Part shown: positions 48,420-57,652 of the stretch, piece after piece
Layout of the letters: each line of letters begins with the position of its first letter
How positions within the stretch are numbered: the first letter of the stretch is position 1
Assembly (NCBI RefSeq): GCF_965213655.1
Contig: NZ_CBDBZT010000003.1
Location: 2,637,389-2,701,388, forward strand
Source of the DNA: Candidatus Palauibacter sp.
GTDB taxonomy: Bacteria; Gemmatimonadota; Gemmatimonadetes; Palauibacterales; Palauibacteraceae
DNA length: 64,000 bases
Reading direction: 5' to 3'
The notes under the pieces: generated by a model
Told to the model about the DNA's origin: nothing
What the model saw: only the letters and a program-made list of their open reading frames with translations
Databases searched by the model: none
Program-made: the position numbers and the translations under genes

Positions 48420-49913
48420 TCACGCGGGGTCGCCCTCGTACACGAAGCGTTCGACCGCGCCATGGATCCGCGACACGGTCACGTCGCTGGGCGGGAGCGT
48501 GAACCGACTCACGACCCACGTCACGAGGAAGTTCACCAGCAGTCCCCACACCCCGCCGTGCAGGCCCAGAGGGTGGGGCACGAGGATGAGCGTGAGGCAC
48601 AGCGTGACGAGCCCGGCCCCGATGCCCGCGATCACCCCGGTCTTCGTCGTCAGGCGCCGGCTCGGGAAGCAGACGCCGAGGATCGCCGGCATCAGTTGCA
48701 GCGCCCCCGAACCCGAGAGAGCCACGAGTTGCACGAGCAGATCGAACGTGCTCACGGAGAGGAAGTAGCCGACCGCCAGAAGGGCCACGACGATGAGCCG
48801 GCCGATGAAGATGTAGTGATTCTGGCTCGCGCCCGTTCGAATGTAGCGCTGGTACACATCGCGCGTCAGCACCGTCATGTTCGCGTGCAGCATCGAGTCG
48901 AGCGTGGACATCGCCGCCGCCGTCGCGCCGGCCAGGATCGCACCCGTAAGCCAGGGCGGGGCGTACGCGAAGAGCATCTCCGGGAAGATCCGGTCCGGGA
49001 TCGCGATGTCCGGCATCACGAGCGCGCCGCCCAGCCCGACGAGCGCCGCCGGGATGTAGAGCGTCATGAGATAGATCGGCGTCGTGGCGCCCAGCAGCTT
49101 GATCGTGCGGGCCGAGACCGCCGTGTAGTAGCGGATGAGGAGGTGCGGCTGGAAGATGATCCCGAACGAGAGCACGACGATCATCCCGAACCACATCCCC
49201 GGCGTGAAGAAGCCCTCCGGCCCCGGAAGCGTGAGGAGATCGGGGCGCTGCACCCCGACCTGCCGCCACAACTCGAACGGCCCGCCGAAGAGCTTGAAGG
49301 CGAGCACGAGGGCGCCGGCCCACACGGCGATGTACATCCACACGCCCTGGATCACGTCCGTCCAGTAGACCGCCCGCAGACCCCCCGCGATGAGGTAGCC
49401 CGCGGCGACCACGAGCAGGATCAGCGTCCCCAGTTCGAACGAGATCCGGTCGCCGGACGCGACCGAGAGGATGTAGCCCAGCCCCACCGCCTGGACCTGG
49501 ATGTAGAGGATGGTGAACAGGACCGACACGATGGCGGTCACGATTCGCACCGCATCCGACTCGTAGAAGTCCGCCAGCAGGTCGGCCGGCGTGATGTAGC
49601 CGAACGTCTTCCCCAGCGCCCAGATCCGGCTCCCGAGCACGTAGGTGATCGCCCCGACGAGCACCGTCCACGCGCCCGCCGCCCAGAACCCGATTCCGTG
49701 CGTGTAGAAGAAACCGCCCGAACCGAGGAATGCGAACGCGGAATGGTAGGTGGCGACGACCGTGAGATAGAGGACGATGAACCCGGCCTTGCGTCCGTAG
49801 AGGAGGAAGTCCTCCAGGTCCACGGACATGCGCCGGTTCGCGATCGCCCCCAGCACGATGGTGGCCACGAGATAGACGAAGATGAGACCGGTCGCGACGA
49901 CCCAGGCCTCCAT
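48420..49913 (-). CDS. Sodium:solute symporter (SSS family, VC_2705-like)
   Basis: 13-14 TM; typical SSS N-terminus; ATGA overlap with the upstream small subunit. Confidence 0.85.
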   Translation of the reverse strand: MEAWVVATGLIFVYLVATIVLGAIANRRMSVDLEDFLLYGRKAGFIVLYLTVVATYHSAFAFLGSGGFFYTHGIGFWAAGAWTVLVGAITYVLGSRIWALGKTFGYITPADLLADFYESDAVRIVTAIVSVLFTILYIQVQAVGLGYILSVASGDRISFELGTLILLVVAAGYLIAGGLRAVYWTDVIQGVWMYIAVWAGALVLAFKLFGGPFELWRQVGVQRPDLLTLPGPEGFFTPGMWFGMIVVLSFGIIFQPHLLIRYYTAVSARTIKLLGATTPIYLMTLYIPAALVGLGGALVMPDIAIPDRIFPEMLFAYAPPWLTGAILAGATAAAMSTLDSMLHANMTVLTRDVYQRYIRTGASQNHYIFIGRLIVVALLAVGYFLSVSTFDLLVQLVALSGSGALQLMPAILGVCFPSRRLTTKTGVIAGIGAGLVTLCLTLILVPHPLGLHGGVWGLLVNFLVTWVVSRFTLPPSDVTVSRIHGAVERFVYEGDPA

Positions 49914-50137
49914 CAGAGCCCCCGCCTCTGCACCCGGATCAGAACGCCGATGAGGAGGACGTAGAAGACGAGCAGGTACACGTAGAGGAAGGGCATGCCC
50001 CCGATCCACGGCTCGACGCGGTTGCCGAGCCAGTACACGAGCGGTGGCTGCGTGAACGCGAACAGAACAAGGAAGAGGACGACGAGCCGGCGGCCCGTCG
50101 GCGTTCGCGGCAGGAAGTGGGAACGAAAGCGTGTCAT
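49913..50137 (-). CDS. Small 2-TM protein (DUF4212-like putative symporter small subunit)
   Basis: 74 aa, two TM helices; translationally coupled to the symporter. Confidence 0.55.
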   Translation of the reverse strand: MTRFRSHFLPRTPTGRRLVVLFLVLFAFTQPPLVYWLGNRVEPWIGGMPFLYVYLLVFYVLLIGVLIRVQRRGL

Positions 50138-50216
50138 GCCGTCAAGCTAGTCGGACCTCAGCGCCAGCGGCCAGCCGTCCCACCCGGCTCCGGCCGCGCC
50201 GGGCTCGGCGGTCGGG

Positions 50217-50268
50217 CCCAGCGGTCGAGCCCAGCGGTCGAGCCCAGCGGTCGAGCTCAGCGGCCGGC
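50217..50268. repeat. Intergenic tandem repeat: 13-mer CCCAGCGGTCGAG x3 plus a degenerate 4th unit
   Basis: gggCCCAGCGGTCGAGCCCAGCGGTCGAGCCCAGCGGTCGAGCTCAGCGGCCGG; overlaps the S1 protease stop and lies 80-130 nt upstream of the small-subunit start. Confidence 0.7.
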
Positions 50269-51405
50269 GTCCTCGCCCACGATCGTCACGTCGAAGCGGT
50301 CGAGCACGAGGTCGATCGGGTTCGCGATCGTGAGCCGCCCGTCGCCGGCGAAGAGCAGGGCGACCGGCCGGCGGTCGTCCGGGCCCGCGTTTCCGTCACG
50401 GTCCTGATCGCGCGCCACGATCAGAGAACCCGAGTCGCCGCCCGCGCTGAAGCTGCAGCACACCATGATCTGACCGACAAAGCGGCCCACCTGCGACCCG
50501 GCCGACCCGTAGTTCACGTTGATCGACGCGTTGACCGCCTCCACCTCCCCGACCGTGAGGCGCGTCGTCCGACCGTACTTCTGGACCTGCAGCCCCGGCC
50601 TCGCCGCCATCGTCGTGCTGCGCGGCGACCCATAGCCCCCCACCGGCGTCTCCGGCAGCACCTCGTCCGTGCGCGCGATCGCCGCATCGATCCGGTTGGA
50701 TGCGAACGGCGACAAGGCCACCGGTTCGAACGCGGCCAGCGTGGCGATCGCATCCCCCGGGTCCGAGCCGCCGTCCACGGGGCCCGGCTGCAGGAGATTG
50801 TCGCCCACCTGTCCCTCGCCGCCCGGCACGAACACGTGCCAGTTGCTGAGCGCGTAGCGGCGCTCGCCATCGGTCACGACGGCGCCGATCGTGCCCGCCG
50901 TCGAGCGTGTGTGCCCCGTGGACACGCCCATGGGCACCGGTCGGTCGAAGCGCCCCGTCGGCACCGGGCCTTCGTCCGTCGATACCGGATCGACGCTCTC
51001 GGGCGGCAGGATGCGGAACGGGCCGGCCGGCTCGATGGTGACCGGGAAAAGACCGAGCACCTCCGGGATGCCCGGGAGTCCACGGGGCCCCGGCGACACG
51101 GCCGGATCGACGAAGACCTTGATCGTCGGCATCCCCGCGTCGGTGAAACCGATCCCCACGCCGACCACGCTCGGAACGGCGAAGAGCGTCGATTCGTTGT
51201 CGCTCTGAATCTGCATGGCGGCCGCCAGCAACTCCTGGGCGGAGGCACCCGGGGGCCGCAACGGCGGACGCGCAGGAAGCCGTGGCGGAGGCAGCGTCGG
51301 GGGCCGCGCCGGCCAGGACGTAAGCGTCCAGTGGATGCCGACCCCGACGCAGGTGGTCGCCGCGATCGCGATCGCCAGGATGAGATTCCGGCGCGGCGTC
51401 ATCAT
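50257..51405 (-). CDS. S1-family (chymotrypsin/alpha-lytic-protease-like) serine peptidase with N-terminal membrane anchor and pro-region
   Basis: ALSNWHV (His), GDSGSLIV (Ser) catalytic motifs; GGAAGAGGA SD. Confidence 0.8.
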   Translation of the reverse strand: MMTPRRNLILAIAIAATTCVGVGIHWTLTSWPARPPTLPPPRLPARPPLRPPGASAQELLAAAMQIQSDNESTLFAVPSVVGVGIGFTDAGMPTIKVFVDPAVSPGPRGLPGIPEVLGLFPVTIEPAGPFRILPPESVDPVSTDEGPVPTGRFDRPVPMGVSTGHTRSTAGTIGAVVTDGERRYALSNWHVFVPGGEGQVGDNLLQPGPVDGGSDPGDAIATLAAFEPVALSPFASNRIDAAIARTDEVLPETPVGGYGSPRSTTMAARPGLQVQKYGRTTRLTVGEVEAVNASINVNYGSAGSQVGRFVGQIMVCCSFSAGGDSGSLIVARDQDRDGNAGPDDRRPVALLFAGDGRLTIANPIDLVLDRFDVTIVGEDAGR

Positions 51406-51418
51406 CCGTCCTCTTCCA

Positions 51419-51664
51419 TTATTCGCTGCCGGCCGATGGTCCCGCCGGCCCGTTCGCCTGCGTCCGGAAAGGACCCCCGCCGACCACCCGCACGGGGTGT
51501 CCGTCGTACCGGTCCGGGATCGATTTCCGGGACGAGGACTCCGAAAGGTAGACCTTCAGGCACGGGTCCCCGTTGTCGGCTCCGATGCCCACGGCGGACA
51601 CATCCCTGCGCGAGAGCAGCTTCTCGGCGAGTCGCTGCTGCGCCTCTTCGATCGAGCGTTTCAT
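51419..51664 (-). CDS. Small protein (81 aa) homologous to the N-terminal pro-region of the adjacent S1 peptidase
   Basis: AAGGAGG SD 5 nt before the ATG; VSAVGIGADNGDPCLKVYL...PVRVVGGGPFR aligns with the protease VVGVGIGFTDAGMPTIKVFV...PVTIEPAGPFR. Confidence 0.65.
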   Translation of the reverse strand: MKRSIEEAQQRLAEKLLSRRDVSAVGIGADNGDPCLKVYLSESSSRKSIPDRYDGHPVRVVGGGPFRTQANGPAGPSAGSE

Positions 51665-51744: not shown

Positions 51745-53067
51745 TCACGGAGTCACCGCGAGCGGCCGGTGACGGTAGACCACTCCGCCACGCATGACGA
51801 GCACGACATGCTCGAGGGCTCCGATGTCGGACGTCGGATCGCCCGCCACCGCGATCACATCGGCCTCGAACCCCGGCACGAGGGCGCCCACCGTCTCCTC
51901 AAGCTCGAGCGAGGCCGCCGCCAGGCTCGTGGCCGAGACAATGGCCTCCATCGGATCCTGCCCGCCTTCACGCACCCTGTACACCAGTTCCGTCCAATTG
52001 CGCCCGTGCGCTCCGGCTACGGCGTCGGTCCCGAACACGATGTCGAGCCCTTCGACGTCGAGGGCCTCGCGGAAGGCGCCGAGCGCGGTCGGCACCGCTT
52101 GGCGCATCTGACGGAATCCGTCCTCCGTGTAGTTCCCGATGCCGAGGTAACGGTCCTGGTTCGCGAAGTAGTTCTCGAAGATCAGGTGAGTGTGCGGGTC
52201 GTAATAGAGACCGCGTTCGGCCAGGAGTTCGAGCGTCTCGCGATCGAGGAGGGCGCCGTGCTCGATCTGCCGGCATCCCGCGAGGGCCGAGCGCTGCGCG
52301 CTCTCGGGGCCGTGGGCGTGGACCACGGCGCGCAGGCCATGCTCACTCGCCCGGCCACAGGCGGCGTCGAGCTGCTCCTGGCTCAGCGTCGGCGCGCCGC
52401 CGACCCTGATGCTGGCGGACCCGAAGATCTTGATCACGTCCGCGCCCGCCTCCACCAGCGCGTCCACGCGGGCCCGGATCTCCTCCGGCCCGCCGCTCCC
52501 CGCCGTGATGGGCTCGATCGACGTCAGCACGCGCGGTCCCGGCAGCGATCCCCGCGCAATGGCGTCGCGGACCGGCACATCCTCGGGGCCGCCCAGGCTC
52601 TGCACTGTCGTGACACCGCTCGCGAGCATGTTCCAGGCGTTCTCCGCCGCGTAGAGCACGCGGTCCTCCGCCGTGTCCGTCGACTCCGCGCTGTGCAGCC
52701 GCCCCGTTTCCGCGTCGAAGTGCCAACCGAGGTGGACGTGGGTGTCGATGAGCCCCGGCAGCACGGTCGCCCCCGGCAGTTCGTATACCACGGCGCCCGC
52801 CGTGGCCCCCTCCTCGGCGATGGCTTCGATCCGTCCGTCTCGTACCACGAGTTCGCGACCCGTGAGCACGGCGCCGCGTCCGTCGAGGATCCGGTCCGCC
52901 CGGATGACGACGGCGGCGTCCGGACCGGCGGGGTGCAGATCCGAGGCGTCCTGCCCGGCGTCCGTCGAGCACCCGCTCACGACCGGGATCGCGAAAACGG
53001 AGATGGCGGCCGCCCGGGCCATCAGGGCCCTGTGGCCTCGCGTCGCATCAGTGGCGCCTGAGGGCAT
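51745..53067 (-). CDS. Metal-dependent amidohydrolase family protein (lipoprotein)
   Basis: LIDTHVHLGW metal-binding motif; lipobox VVSGCS. Confidence 0.8.
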   Translation of the reverse strand: MPSGATDATRGHRALMARAAAISVFAIPVVSGCSTDAGQDASDLHPAGPDAAVVIRADRILDGRGAVLTGRELVVRDGRIEAIAEEGATAGAVVYELPGATVLPGLIDTHVHLGWHFDAETGRLHSAESTDTAEDRVLYAAENAWNMLASGVTTVQSLGGPEDVPVRDAIARGSLPGPRVLTSIEPITAGSGGPEEIRARVDALVEAGADVIKIFGSASIRVGGAPTLSQEQLDAACGRASEHGLRAVVHAHGPESAQRSALAGCRQIEHGALLDRETLELLAERGLYYDPHTHLIFENYFANQDRYLGIGNYTEDGFRQMRQAVPTALGAFREALDVEGLDIVFGTDAVAGAHGRNWTELVYRVREGGQDPMEAIVSATSLAAASLELEETVGALVPGFEADVIAVAGDPTSDIGALEHVVLVMRGGVVYRHRPLAVTP

Positions 53068-53772: not shown

Positions 53773-56700
53773 CTACCGGCGAGCGACCAGTGCACCGCCC
53801 GCGTCGATCGTGACCTCCAGCGGCGTCGGCGCATCGAGCGGGGTGACCGTTTCCGAGCCGTCCGGCCAGCGCACCCACACGGCCGTCGGACCGGAGGCCG
53901 GATCCCCGGCGAGCCCCATGACCTGCACCAGGTCATCCTGCGACCAGTAGCCTCCGCCCGCGCGGACCTCGCGCAGCGGGCCCCGCGTCCCGCCGTACTC
54001 CAGCCGGATCGCGGCGCCGATGGCGGCCGGATTCTCCTCGCTCCCCAGGAGTCGGACGCGCAAGCCGGGCTTCGCGCCCGCGTTCCGGTACAGCCTCGTC
54101 CCGGCCCCGTTCTGGCTGACGAGCACGTCCACGCGCCCATCGCCGTCGTAGTCCGCGAACGCCGCGCCGCGCTGCTCGCCGTACACCGTGATGCCCGACC
54201 GCTGTCCCGGGACCGGCGTCAGCGCCCCCGTCCCGTCGCCCCGCAGCCACAGGCCGCGGCCCGCGTCGTTACGCTCCGCCTCGCCGCGCAGCGCGAACAG
54301 GTTCTGGCTCAGGAAGACATCCTCGTGCCCGTCCCCGTCCATGTCGGCCACGCCCACATGAAACGCCGGCGCCAACTGCGCTTCGCGCGGTAGGTCGAAC
54401 GCCTCGAACGACCCCCCGCGGTTGATGAACACCGTGTGCGCCAGCGTCGTCGCCTCGACCGTGGGCAGGAGGTCCGCCGGCTGCTCCAGGATCTCGTTCA
54501 CGCCCAACTGCCCGTAGTGCTCGAACCCCTGGATGCGGTTGCGGAGGAAGGGGAGGCCGCCCGCAAGCGTGAGGAGTCCCCGCACCGGAACCATCGAGCG
54601 CGTGAACTCGTCGTAGCGCGCCTCGATCACGTCGCGGAAGCCGTCGTTGTCCAGATCCGTGTGATAGGCGGTGGCCGGGTGCTCCGGGCTGGCCCGGAAC
54701 TGTGAGTTGAGCCCCCGGTTGGACGCGATGAGGTCGGGTAGCCCGTCCCCGTTCAGGTCGCCCGTCGTCACGCCGTTCCACCACCCGGTGCGGGCCTCGA
54801 GTCCGAAGCCGGCCGTCGCGTCCTCGAATCGCCCCTCGCGATTGAGGAAGAGCCGAACGGGTCCCCACTCGACGGCGAGCATGAGATCCGCGTCTCCGTC
54901 CGCGTCCACGTCGCTGAAGACGGCGCCGGACACGAGACCCACGTCGGTCAGCGCCGTCGCGTTCGACTCGTCGAGCACGTAGCGGCCGCTCTCGTTGAGG
55001 AAGAGGCGGGAGCTCGCCGCGGCCGGATACTGGCCGGGGATCACGCGTCCCCCCACGAAGAGGTCGACGTCGCCGTCCCCGTCGTAGTCGGCGGCTGCGA
55101 GGGGGCCGGTGCTCGACTCGGCCCCCGGAAGACTCTGCGCCGGGGTGAGCGTCGTGCCCGAGGCCGACAGCACCGCGGCCGAGGGTGCTGCCCGGTCGGT
55201 GCCGTCGTACGTCGCGGTGCCGACGACCACCGTGGCGCCGGCCCGGCCGGGGACGATGAGGAGGCCCGTCTGATCGCCCGGGGACGGCGCCGGCCCGGCC
55301 GCCCCGCCCCGCGCCCCCCGGTCCGGCGAGAACCCACCCTCGCCGTCGTTGTGGAAGACCGAGAGGCCGGCCCCGCCGCCGCCGCCGACCAGGGCGTCCG
55401 TGTCCCCGTCACCGTCGATATCGCCCCACGCGACGCCGGGGCCGCCCTGTCCAAGGCGCCACGTGATAAGCGGTTGCTGCGCGAAGTCGTCGAACGCGTT
55501 CTCCCGGTGACGGTGCCCGAGCAGCGCAGACACATCGTCGAACAGGGGCGCTTCCGATTCCGCCTCCCCCGCGGTGGCTCCCGCGGCGGCCCCGGCGGCG
55601 GCTCCCGCGGCGGCCTCCGGTTCGCGGATCTCGTAGATGCGGTTCGCGCGGACACCCTCCACCCGGCTCGTTGCCCCGTCCCGCCACACGACCTCGATCG
55701 TCGCCTCCCCGTCGTCCACGGCGAAGCTGGCCATCGGCTCCGAACCGGAGAGGTACAGGCCTCCCGCGACGACCTCCTTCGTCTGCGCCGGCAACTCGCC
55801 CCCCGACAGACGGACCCGCGCGCCGACGCCCGCCGTGTTGGGTCCCCGGCCGACGAGCCGCACGGCCACCCGCGGCGCCCGTCCCACGTTCCGGTAGACT
55901 CCCGCCGGCGCCAGCAGCCGGTTCGTGACAATGTCCAGATCCCCGTCCCCGTCGAGATCCGCCACGGCCATCCCGTGCGTGATGTCCTCGTCCCCCGCGA
56001 ACCCCCACGCCTCTCCCACCTCCTCGAAGGTCAGGTCGCCGCGGTTGCGGAAGGCGATGTTGGAGAGCCGGAGCGGAGGGAAGCCGAGGATGCGCTGCCG
56101 CCAGTCCATCGACCCCACCCTCTGCACCGCATCCTTGTCCATCGCGTCGTAGAAGTGCCCCGTCCCCACGAGCAGGTCCTCATACCCGTCGAGATCGACG
56201 TCCACGAACGTGCTCCCCCACGACCAGCCGGACGCGTCGAGGCCCGCGAACTGCGCGGTCTCCGCGAAGGTTCCGTCCCCCCGGCTCAGGTAGAGCGTGT
56301 TGCGTGGCTTCTGCGGCCGGTTATCGAGCCGCCCCGCGAACTGCGGATCGGCCTCGCCCCCCACCATCTGCTTCATGCGCAGCCGCTGCTCCCGGCTCAG
56401 CATCTCCACGACGAAGAAGTCCGTGAACCCGTCCCGGTCCACATCTGAAAAATCCACGCCCATGGAGGCGAAGCTCGTGCTCCGCATGGCCAGCGGCGCG
56501 AGCATCCGGAAATGCCCGGCCCCGTCGTTGATCCAGATGTGGTCGGGGCTGTGGAAGTCGTTGCAGACGTAGAGGTCGGGATCCCCGTCCCCGTCCATGT
56601 CCTGGAAACGGGCTGCGAGTCCCCACTCCAACGGCTCGGATTCCAGCGGCCGGCCCTCCTCGTCGAGGAACGCGCCCTCGGTCCACGGCACCGGCGTGAA

Positions 56701-57522
56701 CCGTCCCCCTCCGTCGTTCAGGTAGAGCCGGTCGGGCTCCGCGAGTTCGAGCCGGGGGACCATCCCCTCCTGGACCTCGCCGAGCGTGTAGTGTTCCCGC
56801 CACTCGGGGAGAAGCTCGAACCCGTCCTCCGTCTGCCGGTAGATATTGCTCGGCTGGAGGACTTCGGGCGGGAAGAGATCCTGCACCGTCGCGACCTTGT
56901 TGTTCACCACGTACAGGTCGAGGTCCCCGTCCCCGTCGACGTCGGCGAGCGTCATCGACATGCTCCCGAGCGTCGAGGTGAGCCCGGCCGCCTCCGTCCC
57001 GTCCGTGAAGTGGCCCGTCCCGTCGTTCAGGTAGAGCGCGTTCGGTCCCCCGAGCGCGTTGACGAGCAGGTCCAGGTCTCCGTCACCGTCCACATCCGCG
57101 AACACGGCGCCCGTCGAGAAGCGGCCCGCCGCCGCGACCCCCGCCTCCTCGGCGATGTCCTCGAAGCGCCAGCCGCCCAGGTTCCGGTAGAGTCGATTCG
57201 GCCCGTCCATCCCCGCGAGGTAGAGATCGACGCGACCGTCGCCGTCCACGTCCCCCGCCGCGACGCCGGACCCGTTCAGGTAGTGGCTGTTGTCGATGTA
57301 CTGCTCTTCGGTGACCACGTTCTCGAACGAGATGCCGGTCTCCGAGGGGTCGAGGCGCTCGAACCCCGGCTCGTCCTCGCCCGAGACGCGAAGCTCGGCC
57401 CAGCGATACCCGTCCTCCTCGACCCAATCGAGCGCCCCCGACCCACACCCGCCCGAGACCGCCGCCGCCACGAGCAGCGTGACGCGAACGAGCGGTCCGG
57501 CGTCTTGATGAATGTCGGGCAT
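53773..57522 (-). CDS. CRTAC1-family FG-GAP/VCBS-repeat protein with ASPIC/UnbV domains (tandem duplicated architecture), lipoprotein
   Basis: Repeated DVDGDGDLDL(YV) FG-GAP calcium-binding motifs in two blocks; about 1249 aa; lipobox SGGCG. Confidence 0.85.
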   Translation of the reverse strand: MPDIHQDAGPLVRVTLLVAAAVSGGCGSGALDWVEEDGYRWAELRVSGEDEPGFERLDPSETGISFENVVTEEQYIDNSHYLNGSGVAAGDVDGDGRVDLYLAGMDGPNRLYRNLGGWRFEDIAEEAGVAAAGRFSTGAVFADVDGDGDLDLLVNALGGPNALYLNDGTGHFTDGTEAAGLTSTLGSMSMTLADVDGDGDLDLYVVNNKVATVQDLFPPEVLQPSNIYRQTEDGFELLPEWREHYTLGEVQEGMVPRLELAEPDRLYLNDGGGRFTPVPWTEGAFLDEEGRPLESEPLEWGLAARFQDMDGDGDPDLYVCNDFHSPDHIWINDGAGHFRMLAPLAMRSTSFASMGVDFSDVDRDGFTDFFVVEMLSREQRLRMKQMVGGEADPQFAGRLDNRPQKPRNTLYLSRGDGTFAETAQFAGLDASGWSWGSTFVDVDLDGYEDLLVGTGHFYDAMDKDAVQRVGSMDWRQRILGFPPLRLSNIAFRNRGDLTFEEVGEAWGFAGDEDITHGMAVADLDGDGDLDIVTNRLLAPAGVYRNVGRAPRVAVRLVGRGPNTAGVGARVRLSGGELPAQTKEVVAGGLYLSGSEPMASFAVDDGEATIEVVWRDGATSRVEGVRANRIYEIREPEAAAGAAAGAAAGATAGEAESEAPLFDDVSALLGHRHRENAFDDFAQQPLITWRLGQGGPGVAWGDIDGDGDTDALVGGGGGAGLSVFHNDGEGGFSPDRGARGGAAGPAPSPGDQTGLLIVPGRAGATVVVGTATYDGTDRAAPSAAVLSASGTTLTPAQSLPGAESSTGPLAAADYDGDGDVDLFVGGRVIPGQYPAAASSRLFLNESGRYVLDESNATALTDVGLVSGAVFSDVDADGDADLMLAVEWGPVRLFLNREGRFEDATAGFGLEARTGWWNGVTTGDLNGDGLPDLIASNRGLNSQFRASPEHPATAYHTDLDNDGFRDVIEARYDEFTRSMVPVRGLLTLAGGLPFLRNRIQGFEHYGQLGVNEILEQPADLLPTVEATTLAHTVFINRGGSFEAFDLPREAQLAPAFHVGVADMDGDGHEDVFLSQNLFALRGEAERNDAGRGLWLRGDGTGALTPVPGQRSGITVYGEQRGAAFADYDGDGRVDVLVSQNGAGTRLYRNAGAKPGLRVRLLGSEENPAAIGAAIRLEYGGTRGPLREVRAGGGYWSQDDLVQVMGLAGDPASGPTAVWVRWPDGSETVTPLDAPTPLEVTIDAGGALVARR

Positions 57523-57652
57523 GCGCCTCGCGAAGGTTCGGGATGGGCTCGCTCCGGGTTCACGAGACACAACGAGCGAGTGGGCAGTATCATATCACCT
57601 GCCTGTGTCGCGGGAATGCGCGGCGCGCGCCGCCAACCGAAGGAGGATGTCC

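Follow-up and report, generated by a model that had tools for sequence, protein, structure and literature searches.

Why should the gene of a serine protease be preceded by a small gene that encodes what appears to be a second copy of the protease's own N-terminal domain (N-domain)? The question is raised by a locus in a 64,000-nucleotide (nt) stretch of a Candidatus Palauibacter sp. genome (Gemmatimonadota; contig NZ_CBDBZT010000003.1, positions 2,637,389 to 2,701,388), here called the window. On the minus strand of the window, a small open reading frame (ORF) ends 13 nt before the ATG of a serine protease gene, and the two are read in different frames. A sequence-only reading of this DNA had taken the small ORF for a stand-alone paralogue of a pro-region of the alpha-lytic protease type, and had named a significant profile-profile alignment with the protease and retention of the small ORF in relatives as the results to be expected. 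When the sequence was re-read, the ORF coordinates and the AAGGAGG ribosome-binding site given there were found to be correct (Table 1).

The small gene and its relationship to the protease

BLASTP aligns residues 15-67 of the small protein with residues 73-131 of the protease at 34% identity (E=1e-5). In profile-profile comparison with hhalign, 15 small orthologues matched the protease family (31 homologues aligned) with 97.5% probability (E=6e-12), and 30 small proteins from several phyla did so with 98.9% probability (E=1e-17, 69 columns). These scores place the similarity far beyond chance. The broader alignment maps residues 5-74 of the small protein onto residues 63-138 of the protease, and the match to protease residues of about 70-135 put forward in the sequence-only reading is thereby borne out, over about 64-138. 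Common to both are a leading helix with a conserved Gln and the motifs G-V-x-G-x-G/A-I-G, P-x-[IL]-K-V-[FY]-V, I/L-P, G-x-P-V and G-x-F-x-A/R-L; at the C-terminal end, G-x-F-R-x-L of the small protein aligns with AGPFRIL of the protease. Judged from the alignments, the small protein is a separately encoded, diverged paralogue of the N-domain of the adjacent protease.

Both domains were inspected in AlphaFold2 (AF2) models. The N-domain of the protease comprises helix 56-75, strands 80-87, 93-99 and 120-126 and the AGPFRIL motif, with a predicted local distance difference test score (pLDDT) of ~94-96 up to about residue 130 and lower values in the block 131-140. The small protein (pLDDT 75.9) has a helix at residues 5-16, strands at 22-30, 33-40 and 56-61 and a short helical turn before the last strand, and its tail, which holds the GGGPFR motif, is disordered from about residue 62. 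The G-x-F motif itself is ordered in the protease model (pLDDT ~94) and disordered in the model of the isolated small protein. Many short small proteins stop 3-4 residues past this motif (e.g., ending in TGKVRRL), while others, that of the window included, carry a longer variable tail.

GC-rich DNA contains many long spurious ORFs, and the small ORF could in principle be one of these or a decaying partial duplicate of the 5' region of the protease gene. The conservation data refute such a non-functional remnant, which we regard as practically out of the question. The start is conserved and preceded by a Shine-Dalgarno sequence; all 15 close homologues (74-81 amino acids (aa), 67-96% identity) begin with MKRSIE, and among close orthologues synonymous codon differences dominate over non-synonymous ones (13:3, 11:3 and 20:4). 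There are also more than 3000 distant homologues of stable length: 3260 clusters (90% identity) came from a profile search with the small family, and among 1.84 billion representatives, searched exhaustively with hmmsearch, there were 4399 matches at E<1e-3 and 1638 at E<1e-10 (the latter counted as representatives at 50% identity), nearly all of them 72-150 aa long. To go by its sequence record, the small ORF is a real gene. A longer version, starting from an in-frame GTG at 51748 that overlaps the stop codon of the neighbouring amidohydrolase gene, was rejected, as the extension is neither hydrophobic nor conserved in orthologous loci. None of the small-family matches listed has a Pfam domain and the few that bear a name are called 'hypothetical protein'; searches of NCBIfam and Pfam with the small protein of the window gave no hits.

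The small proteins carry a near-invariant Cys in the motif P-C-[LI]-K-V (Cys35), at a position where the N-domains of the proteases have Thr, Ala or Val. In addition, with a hidden Markov model (HMM) built from the small proteins of the window's clade, distant small proteins score 1e-7 to 1e-18, and the protease N-domains of that same clade only 1e-4 to 1e-7. Because of this preference and the shared Cys, the small proteins are regarded as a family of their own and not as a recent copy. Tandem versions of the small protein with two or three copies occur as lipoproteins. Two apparent natural fusions, P0264 and P0364, considered as a stand-in for co-folding, look like chimeric or frameshifted gene calls and were set aside.

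Synteny was scanned in one genome per species, covering 79 loci that encode relatives of the protease, with the small genes found by the HMM of the small family. In 71 of the 79 species-level genomes a homologue of the small ORF adjoins the protease gene on the same strand, so that the pairing seen in the sequence-only reading is indeed kept in relatives. The small gene lies directly upstream in 28 loci (L001-L027 and L034), which belong to Candidatus Palauibacter and related Gemmatimonadota and reach down to ~57% protease identity. In 43 loci it lies directly downstream, among them loci of Longimicrobiales, Gemmatimonadales, Planctomycetota, Proteobacteria, Desulfuromonadales, Thermodesulfobacteriota, Methylomirabilota and Rhodothermales. 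The small gene was not found in eight loci (L028-L033, L042, where the upstream flank is cut, and L074). The two genes are closely spaced or overlap, many of the downstream small genes beginning at or inside the stop codon of the protease. When the search was reversed, four distant small proteins (P0183, P0136, P0259 and P0256) were each found directly downstream of a co-oriented gene of ~325-375 aa, and for the first three the partner is, by Pfam, a protease of the type of plant NARROW LEAF 1 (NAL1; see below). Adjacency thus outlasts a switch in the order of the two genes from one clade to another, and this speaks for selection acting on the pairing as such. The small gene and the NAL1-like protease are a conserved two-gene module across several bacterial phyla.

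Both ORFs share one frame with a single stop codon between them in 4 of the 28 upstream-type and 14 of the 43 downstream-type loci (among them L016, L017, L034, L039, L041, L047, L050 and L075). Since the same-frame share is about one third across loci, the arrangement was treated as chance; programmed stop-codon readthrough or fusion was rejected on this ground and because the frames differ in the window.

The same data bear on the proposal that the small protein acts elsewhere, on another partner, on nucleic acid or, via its Cys, on a metal, and that adjacency reflects co-regulation only. Its fold is common to KH-II, BolA and the C-terminal domains of cation diffusion facilitator transporters, its near-invariant Cys is absent from the N-domains of the proteases, and in the window's clade the compartments of the two proteins differ. 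Homology specifically to the partner's own N-domain (E=1e-17) speaks against it, however, as do the adjacency held across phyla despite inverted gene order and the position of all four traced small proteins directly downstream of a co-oriented gene of ~325-375 aa, NAL1-like in three of them. An unrelated target is therefore considered very unlikely.

The protease family and the identity of the copied domain

Altogether 3089 homologues of the protease were found. His190 (50838-50836), Asp240 (50688-50686) and Ser325 (50433-50431) are invariant in 32 aligned homologues, and their codons were checked in the sequence. The AlphaFold model of the protease (mean pLDDT 84.5, predicted template modelling score (pTM) 0.79) shows a two-barrel catalytic domain. 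The protease of the window has no match in NCBIfam and falls under the Pfam thresholds for Peptidase_S64 and Nal1_C (PF25819; 16.3 bits vs a cut-off of 26.1). Nal1_C is matched by 27 of the 32 aligned homologues (best 2e-9), and a PF25819 annotation is precomputed on many database homologues; for the catalytic region of Peptidase_S64 there are sub-threshold matches in 28 of the 32 family members. A profile search of the PDB with the protease family returned rice NAL1 (7Y77) at E=1e-7, spanning both the N-domain and the protease domain, and then streptogrisins and Glu-specific protease. Similarly, Foldseek places the whole chain of the AF2 model on NAL1 (E ~1e-13, ~390-420 columns), and the matches of the catalytic domain after NAL1 are Lysobacter L5, TFPA, alpha-lytic protease and the streptogrisins SGPA/B (E ~1e-9, target TM ~0.75). 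The family to which the protease belongs is NAL1's counterpart in bacteria.

The identity of the copied domain follows from the same comparison. The N-domain of one family member, L082, lies above the Pfam threshold for NAL1_N (PF25608; 32.6 bits vs 27), and NAL1_N is weakly matched by 6 of 65 small proteins (best E 0.021). On these two grounds the small protein can be described as a distant stand-alone domain of the NAL1_N type. In NAL1 the corresponding region, residues 89-172, is known as the 'ATP-binding domain' (ATP, adenosine triphosphate) and stays attached in the solved structures; it packs on the protease domain of a neighbouring subunit to give a trimer, and oligomerisation is needed for activity (PMC12012508). 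The contacts to ATP-Mg are made by the basic residues R120, R122, K123 and K139 (PMC12012508). The HMMER alignment with NAL1 shows no conservation of these residues in either the bacterial N-domain or the small protein: 'FRIRKGD' of NAL1 stands opposite 'GLTEA.G' of the bacterial profile, with GIGFTDAG in the protease of the window and GIGADNGD in its small protein. The linker between the N-domain and the catalytic domain (residues 138-152) differs widely in length, homologues having up to ~25 inserted residues, and, should the N-domain be cleaved at all, would be a candidate site of processing.

How far, then, does the alpha-lytic label hold? Pro_Al_protease (PF02983) was matched by neither the small protein nor the protease, nor by 32 homologues of the protease and 65 of the small protein (E up to 1-5), and PDB profile searches did not return the pro-region chains of 2PRO or 4PRO. 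With the fold of the small protein, Foldseek gave 2pro_A at E 0.23, which is not significant and falls in the noise to be expected with a small fold that is so common. Its topology is presumably the SCOP 'alpha-lytic protease prodomain-like' fold. With no significant Foldseek match and no sequence search recovering Pro_Al_protease, the link to alpha-lytic pro-regions is weak. Of the sequence-only reading, the part that saw a separate copy of the protease's N-terminal domain therefore stands, whereas the assignment to a pro-region of the alpha-lytic type is not demonstrated; as a deep evolutionary origin of the N-domain, the 'pro-region' label is plausible.

Compartments and the possible role of the small protein

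In all 77 loci with a readable N-terminus (two further loci are cut at a contig end), the protease has a hydrophobic segment at this end, and the distribution of charges predicts an N-in/C-out orientation, that is, a periplasmic enzyme on a membrane tether. Ahead of this anchor, residues 1-7 of the protease (51385-51405) form a motif, M-x-P-[RKNHS]-[RK]-N-L, which is conserved down to ~50% identity (loci L001-L034) and is kept also in loci without the small gene.

The small proteins are of two kinds. In the window's clade and in Longimicrobiales they are ~70-80 aa long and have no hydrophobic N-terminus, the small protein of the window being without a signal peptide. In Planctomycetota, Proteobacteria and others they are ~105-130 aa long and have lipoprotein signals (LAGC, LTGC, ILGC). 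In a sample of 273 single-domain members of the small family, 185 have a signal and 127 of those a lipobox. The long lipoprotein forms often have a second Cys in the hairpin (GLCDDKPC). The association of this CxxxxC arrangement with signal peptides is suggestive in the synteny loci and not clean in the larger sample, probably owing to mis-called gene starts. Long lipoprotein forms also have a Met directly before the domain, where the short forms start (L036, L043, L051, L054 and L070; P0136-P0241), which could be an ancestral start codon or an internal start giving a signal-less isoform. Hitch-hiking on the twin-arginine translocation (Tat) pathway was considered as a way to mend the compartment mismatch in the window's clade and was rejected; the RR of MTPRRNL is not conserved (RK, KR, NR, HR or SR in homologues), and the sequence is accordingly not a Tat motif.

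These compartments matter for the role that can be assigned to the small protein. The sequence-only reading had suggested a foldase, an inhibitor or an immunity factor, all of which are plausible candidates. One proposal is a foldase acting in trans, in which the small protein and the cis N-domain would form a bipartite pro-region that templates a kinetically trapped catalytic domain of the alpha-lytic type. Parallels exist in the two-domain pro-region of alpha-lytic protease and in separate steric chaperones such as the lipase foldase Lif and the lipoprotein PrtM, and enzymes of the alpha-lytic/streptogrisin type need the pro-region for folding. The closest structures of the catalytic domain after NAL1 are exactly such enzymes (alpha-lytic protease, streptogrisins, TFPA and Lysobacter L5), and most of the distant small proteins, as lipoproteins, are sited where an exported protease would fold. 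On the other hand, neither Pro_Al_protease nor the pro-region chains in the PDB are matched, and the fold match lies in the noise noted above. The small protein of the window, having no signal peptide, cannot meet a protease that folds after Sec export; moreover, the protease occurs alone in 8 of the 79 genomes, and its cis N-domain is always present, so that a second foldase domain is not obviously needed. We find the foldase proposal improbable.

A structural or assembly subunit has somewhat more in its favour and is rated as rather unlikely. Here the small protein would replace or add to the contacts between N-domain and catalytic domain in trimers and hexamers of the NAL1 type, as part of a hetero-oligomeric cage or as a lipid-anchored tether, and would be needed for activity or for substrate gating. 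The trimer of NAL1 is held together through the homologous domain, and activity depends on the cage (PMC12012508). The lipoprotein forms could tether the complex, the three-copy tandem forms could suit a trimer, and tight gene coupling suggests stoichiometric co-expression. Against this, R120, R122, K123 and K139 of NAL1 are conserved neither in the N-domain nor in the small protein, and the compartment mismatch of the window's clade applies here too.

The explanation that we favour, as possible though still short of probable, is that the small protein is a trans-acting mimic of the N-domain: by docking on the catalytic domain, it would serve as a safeguard inhibitor or as a regulator of assembly. 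The small protein would dock on the surface of the catalytic domain that usually takes an N-domain, whether from the same chain or from a neighbour (the arrangement in the NAL1 trimer), and the conserved C-terminal G-x-F-R motif would serve this docking. So docked, it would keep the protease inactive or unassembled, a dedicated safeguard inhibitor or regulator of assembly produced in step with the enzyme. The signal-less small protein of the window's clade would do so in the cytoplasm, on protease molecules folding ahead of export, as Spi does for SpeB or as staphostatins do, while in most other lineages a lipoprotein form would act in the periplasm.

Several lines of evidence support the mimic: the homology, adjacency in 71 of 79 genomes together with the four loci of the reverse search, the tight spacing, and a family of its own with derived features. 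A further line is the G-x-F motif, which is modelled with confidence in the protease but has no structure in the model of the small protein alone. The homologous domain in NAL1 contacts the protease domain of a neighbour (PMC12012508), and tandem lipoproteins with two or three copies recall an arrangement common in multi-headed inhibitors. Finally, there are precedents in SpeB-Spi and the staphostatins (PMC2873492) and in the subtilisin propeptide-like inhibitors (PMC6993865).

A number of points weigh against this explanation. Physical binding, the docking site and inhibition are parts of it that we infer; what the data show is the homology, a real gene, conserved adjacency, the folds, the catalytic triad and which proteins carry signal sequences. 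Different compartments are predicted for the two proteins of the window's clade, the small protein being signal-less and the protease anchored N-in/C-out. The conserved Cys of the small proteins is not accounted for by mimicry. The small gene is dispensable in some lineages, given the eight loci without it. A mimic need not inhibit either, since the cis N-domain of NAL1 is compatible with an active enzyme. Lastly, the tail after the G-x-F motif ranges from ~3 to ~15 residues, so that a precise 'product-mimic' end is not universal.

Extended to the whole family, the mimic would imply that bacterial NAL1-like proteases are generally two-component systems, in which an ancient stand-alone duplicate of NAL1_N contends for the docking site of the N-domain and in this way governs cage assembly or activity, as a lipoprotein in most phyla and as a cytoplasmic protein in Gemmatimonadota of the Palauibacter type. 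This generalisation is put forward as speculative and somewhat unlikely.

Gene neighbourhood and comparison with known systems

Table 1. Features of the locus, with positions given in the window.
Feature	Position	Strand	Remarks
Small ORF	51664..51419	-	ATG 51664, TAA 51421-51419; 81 aa incl. stop; stand-alone NAL1_N-like domain
Shine-Dalgarno-like AAGGAGG	51674-51668	-	3 nt before ATG of small ORF; read from sequence
NAL1-like S1-fold serine protease	51405..50257	-	ATG 51405, stop 50259-50257; 382 aa incl. stop
Protease residues 4-29, hydrophobic helix (signal anchor)	51319..51396	-	After MxPRRNL motif; AF2 helix and alignment
Protease residues 30-55, Pro/Arg-rich low-complexity spacer	51241..51318	-	pLDDT ~51-54; length and sequence differ among homologues
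Protease residues 56-137, N-domain (NAL1_N-like)	50995..51240	-	Paralogous to small ORF; hhalign and AF2
Protease residues 138-152, variable linker between N-domain and catalytic domain	50950..50994	-	pLDDT <50 at 138-144
Protease residues 153-382, chymotrypsin-fold catalytic domain	50260..50949	-	Invariant triad, codons checked; fold by Foldseek
Amidohydrolase, Xaa-Pro dipeptidase-like	51745..53067	-	Lipoprotein signal; Pfam Amidohydro_1 and NCBIfam; context only

On the minus strand the genes are arranged head to tail in the order amidohydrolase, small ORF, protease, a 74-aa hydrophobic ORF and a sodium:solute symporter. The amidohydrolase matches Pfam Amidohydro_1 (7e-33) and an NCBIfam model of Xaa-Pro dipeptidase (5e-71, under its equivalog cut-off). 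Its N-terminus has a lipoprotein-type signal (..VVSGC..), and it is plausibly exported. The sequence-only reading had an exported amidohydrolase following the pair on the same strand; strand and export signal agree with our data, but in the direction of transcription the gene precedes the pair. The amidohydrolase is syntenic solely in a close clade of Gemmatimonadota, with a tblastn match in 24 of the 79 loci, two of them weak or partial. Because synteny is confined to the close clade, the amidohydrolase and the symporter were rejected as parts of the module.

In the Palauibacter clade the pair is thus flanked by the amidohydrolase, a 74-aa membrane protein (49913-50137) and the symporter (48420-50009), all on the minus strand, a neighbourhood that perhaps fits periplasmic breakdown and uptake of peptides (peptide scavenging). 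A 13-bp tandem repeat, GCGGTCGAGCCCA on the plus strand, is present at 50208-50263 in 4.3 copies (95% match); it begins at the stop codon of the protease and takes up the initial portion of a spacer of ~120 nt that leads to the next gene. Further away (53773-57570, minus strand) lies the gene of a 1265-aa protein, which has two UnbV_ASPIC domains (CRTAC1/ASPIC-like), seven FG-GAP-like repeat stretches and a weak PliI-like stretch. A promoter and terminator scan gave nothing informative, and a role in anti-phage defence was rejected, as there were no PADLOC hits.

Stand-alone mimics of N-domains are known for cysteine proteases and subtilases, and we know of none for chymotrypsin-fold enzymes. 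A conserved, operon-encoded N-domain mimic for chymotrypsin-fold NAL1-like proteases appears to be undescribed, and its family unannotated. The pairing of small protein and protease covers thousands of unannotated proteins, and the partners are bacterial relatives of NAL1, the product of a yield gene in rice that is being actively studied for its regulation and for the function of its N-domain. Should the small protein be an inhibitor or assembly factor, it would represent a new family of inhibitors or regulators, offer a handle on the control of NAL1-type cages and give a testable view of the origin of the NAL1 N-domain. If the two-component reading were true, the small proteins would be a new family of S1-protease regulators, and the 'ATP-binding domain' of NAL1 would descend from a prodomain-like regulatory module able to act in trans. 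At the minimum, the small family deserves an entry in Pfam or NCBIfam and the annotation 'protease-associated'.

The closest known system is NAL1 itself (PDB 7Y77, 8PMG and 8PN2; PF25608 and PF25819), which likewise has an alpha/beta N-domain ahead of a domain of the chymotrypsin fold that bears a His/Asp/Ser triad. The bacterial enzyme differs in having a membrane anchor and a Pro-rich spacer in place of NAL1 residues 1-88 and the C-terminal extension; the basic residues that contact ATP are not conserved in it, and the protein of the window stays under the Pfam thresholds. A separate copy of the N-domain is not mentioned in the structural study of NAL1 (PMC12012508). The alpha-lytic and streptogrisin pro-regions (PF02983; 2PRO and 4PRO) also place an N-terminal alpha-beta-beta-(alpha)-beta domain before an S1 domain of the same structural subgroup. 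They show no sequence match, however, and the homologous domain of NAL1 is retained in the crystal structures and is not a cleaved propeptide. In Ssy5 (Peptidase_S64), a chymotrypsin-like protease of yeast, the inhibitory prodomain stays bound non-covalently. An N-terminal domain that stays attached and controls activity is thus shared as a concept, but the prodomain of Ssy5 is large and unrelated in sequence, and there is no separately encoded copy.

With regard to separately encoded partners, the subtilisin propeptide-like inhibitors (MEROPS I9), such as yeast PBI2, Pleurotus POIA1 and the SUB1 propeptide-like protein of Plasmodium, are tight inhibitors in trans (PMC6993865). Like the small protein, they are stand-alone homologues of an N-terminal chaperone/inhibitor domain of serine proteases (PMC6993865), although the target clan is that of the subtilases and not of the chymotrypsin fold, and there is generally no operon with the target. 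The other parallel is SpeB-Spi of Streptococcus pyogenes. Spi, too, is small and without a signal peptide; it is related to the N-terminal region of the exported protease beside which it is encoded and with which it is co-transcribed, and its proposed role is protection from prematurely active SpeB (PMC2873492, citing Kagawa et al., 2005). As a C10 cysteine protease, SpeB has an unrelated fold; its propeptide is known to be cleaved, and inhibition by Spi has been shown experimentally, whereas the present pair is known from sequence and models. What the two pairs have in common is a stand-alone analogue of the protease's own N-terminal region, encoded beside the protease gene.

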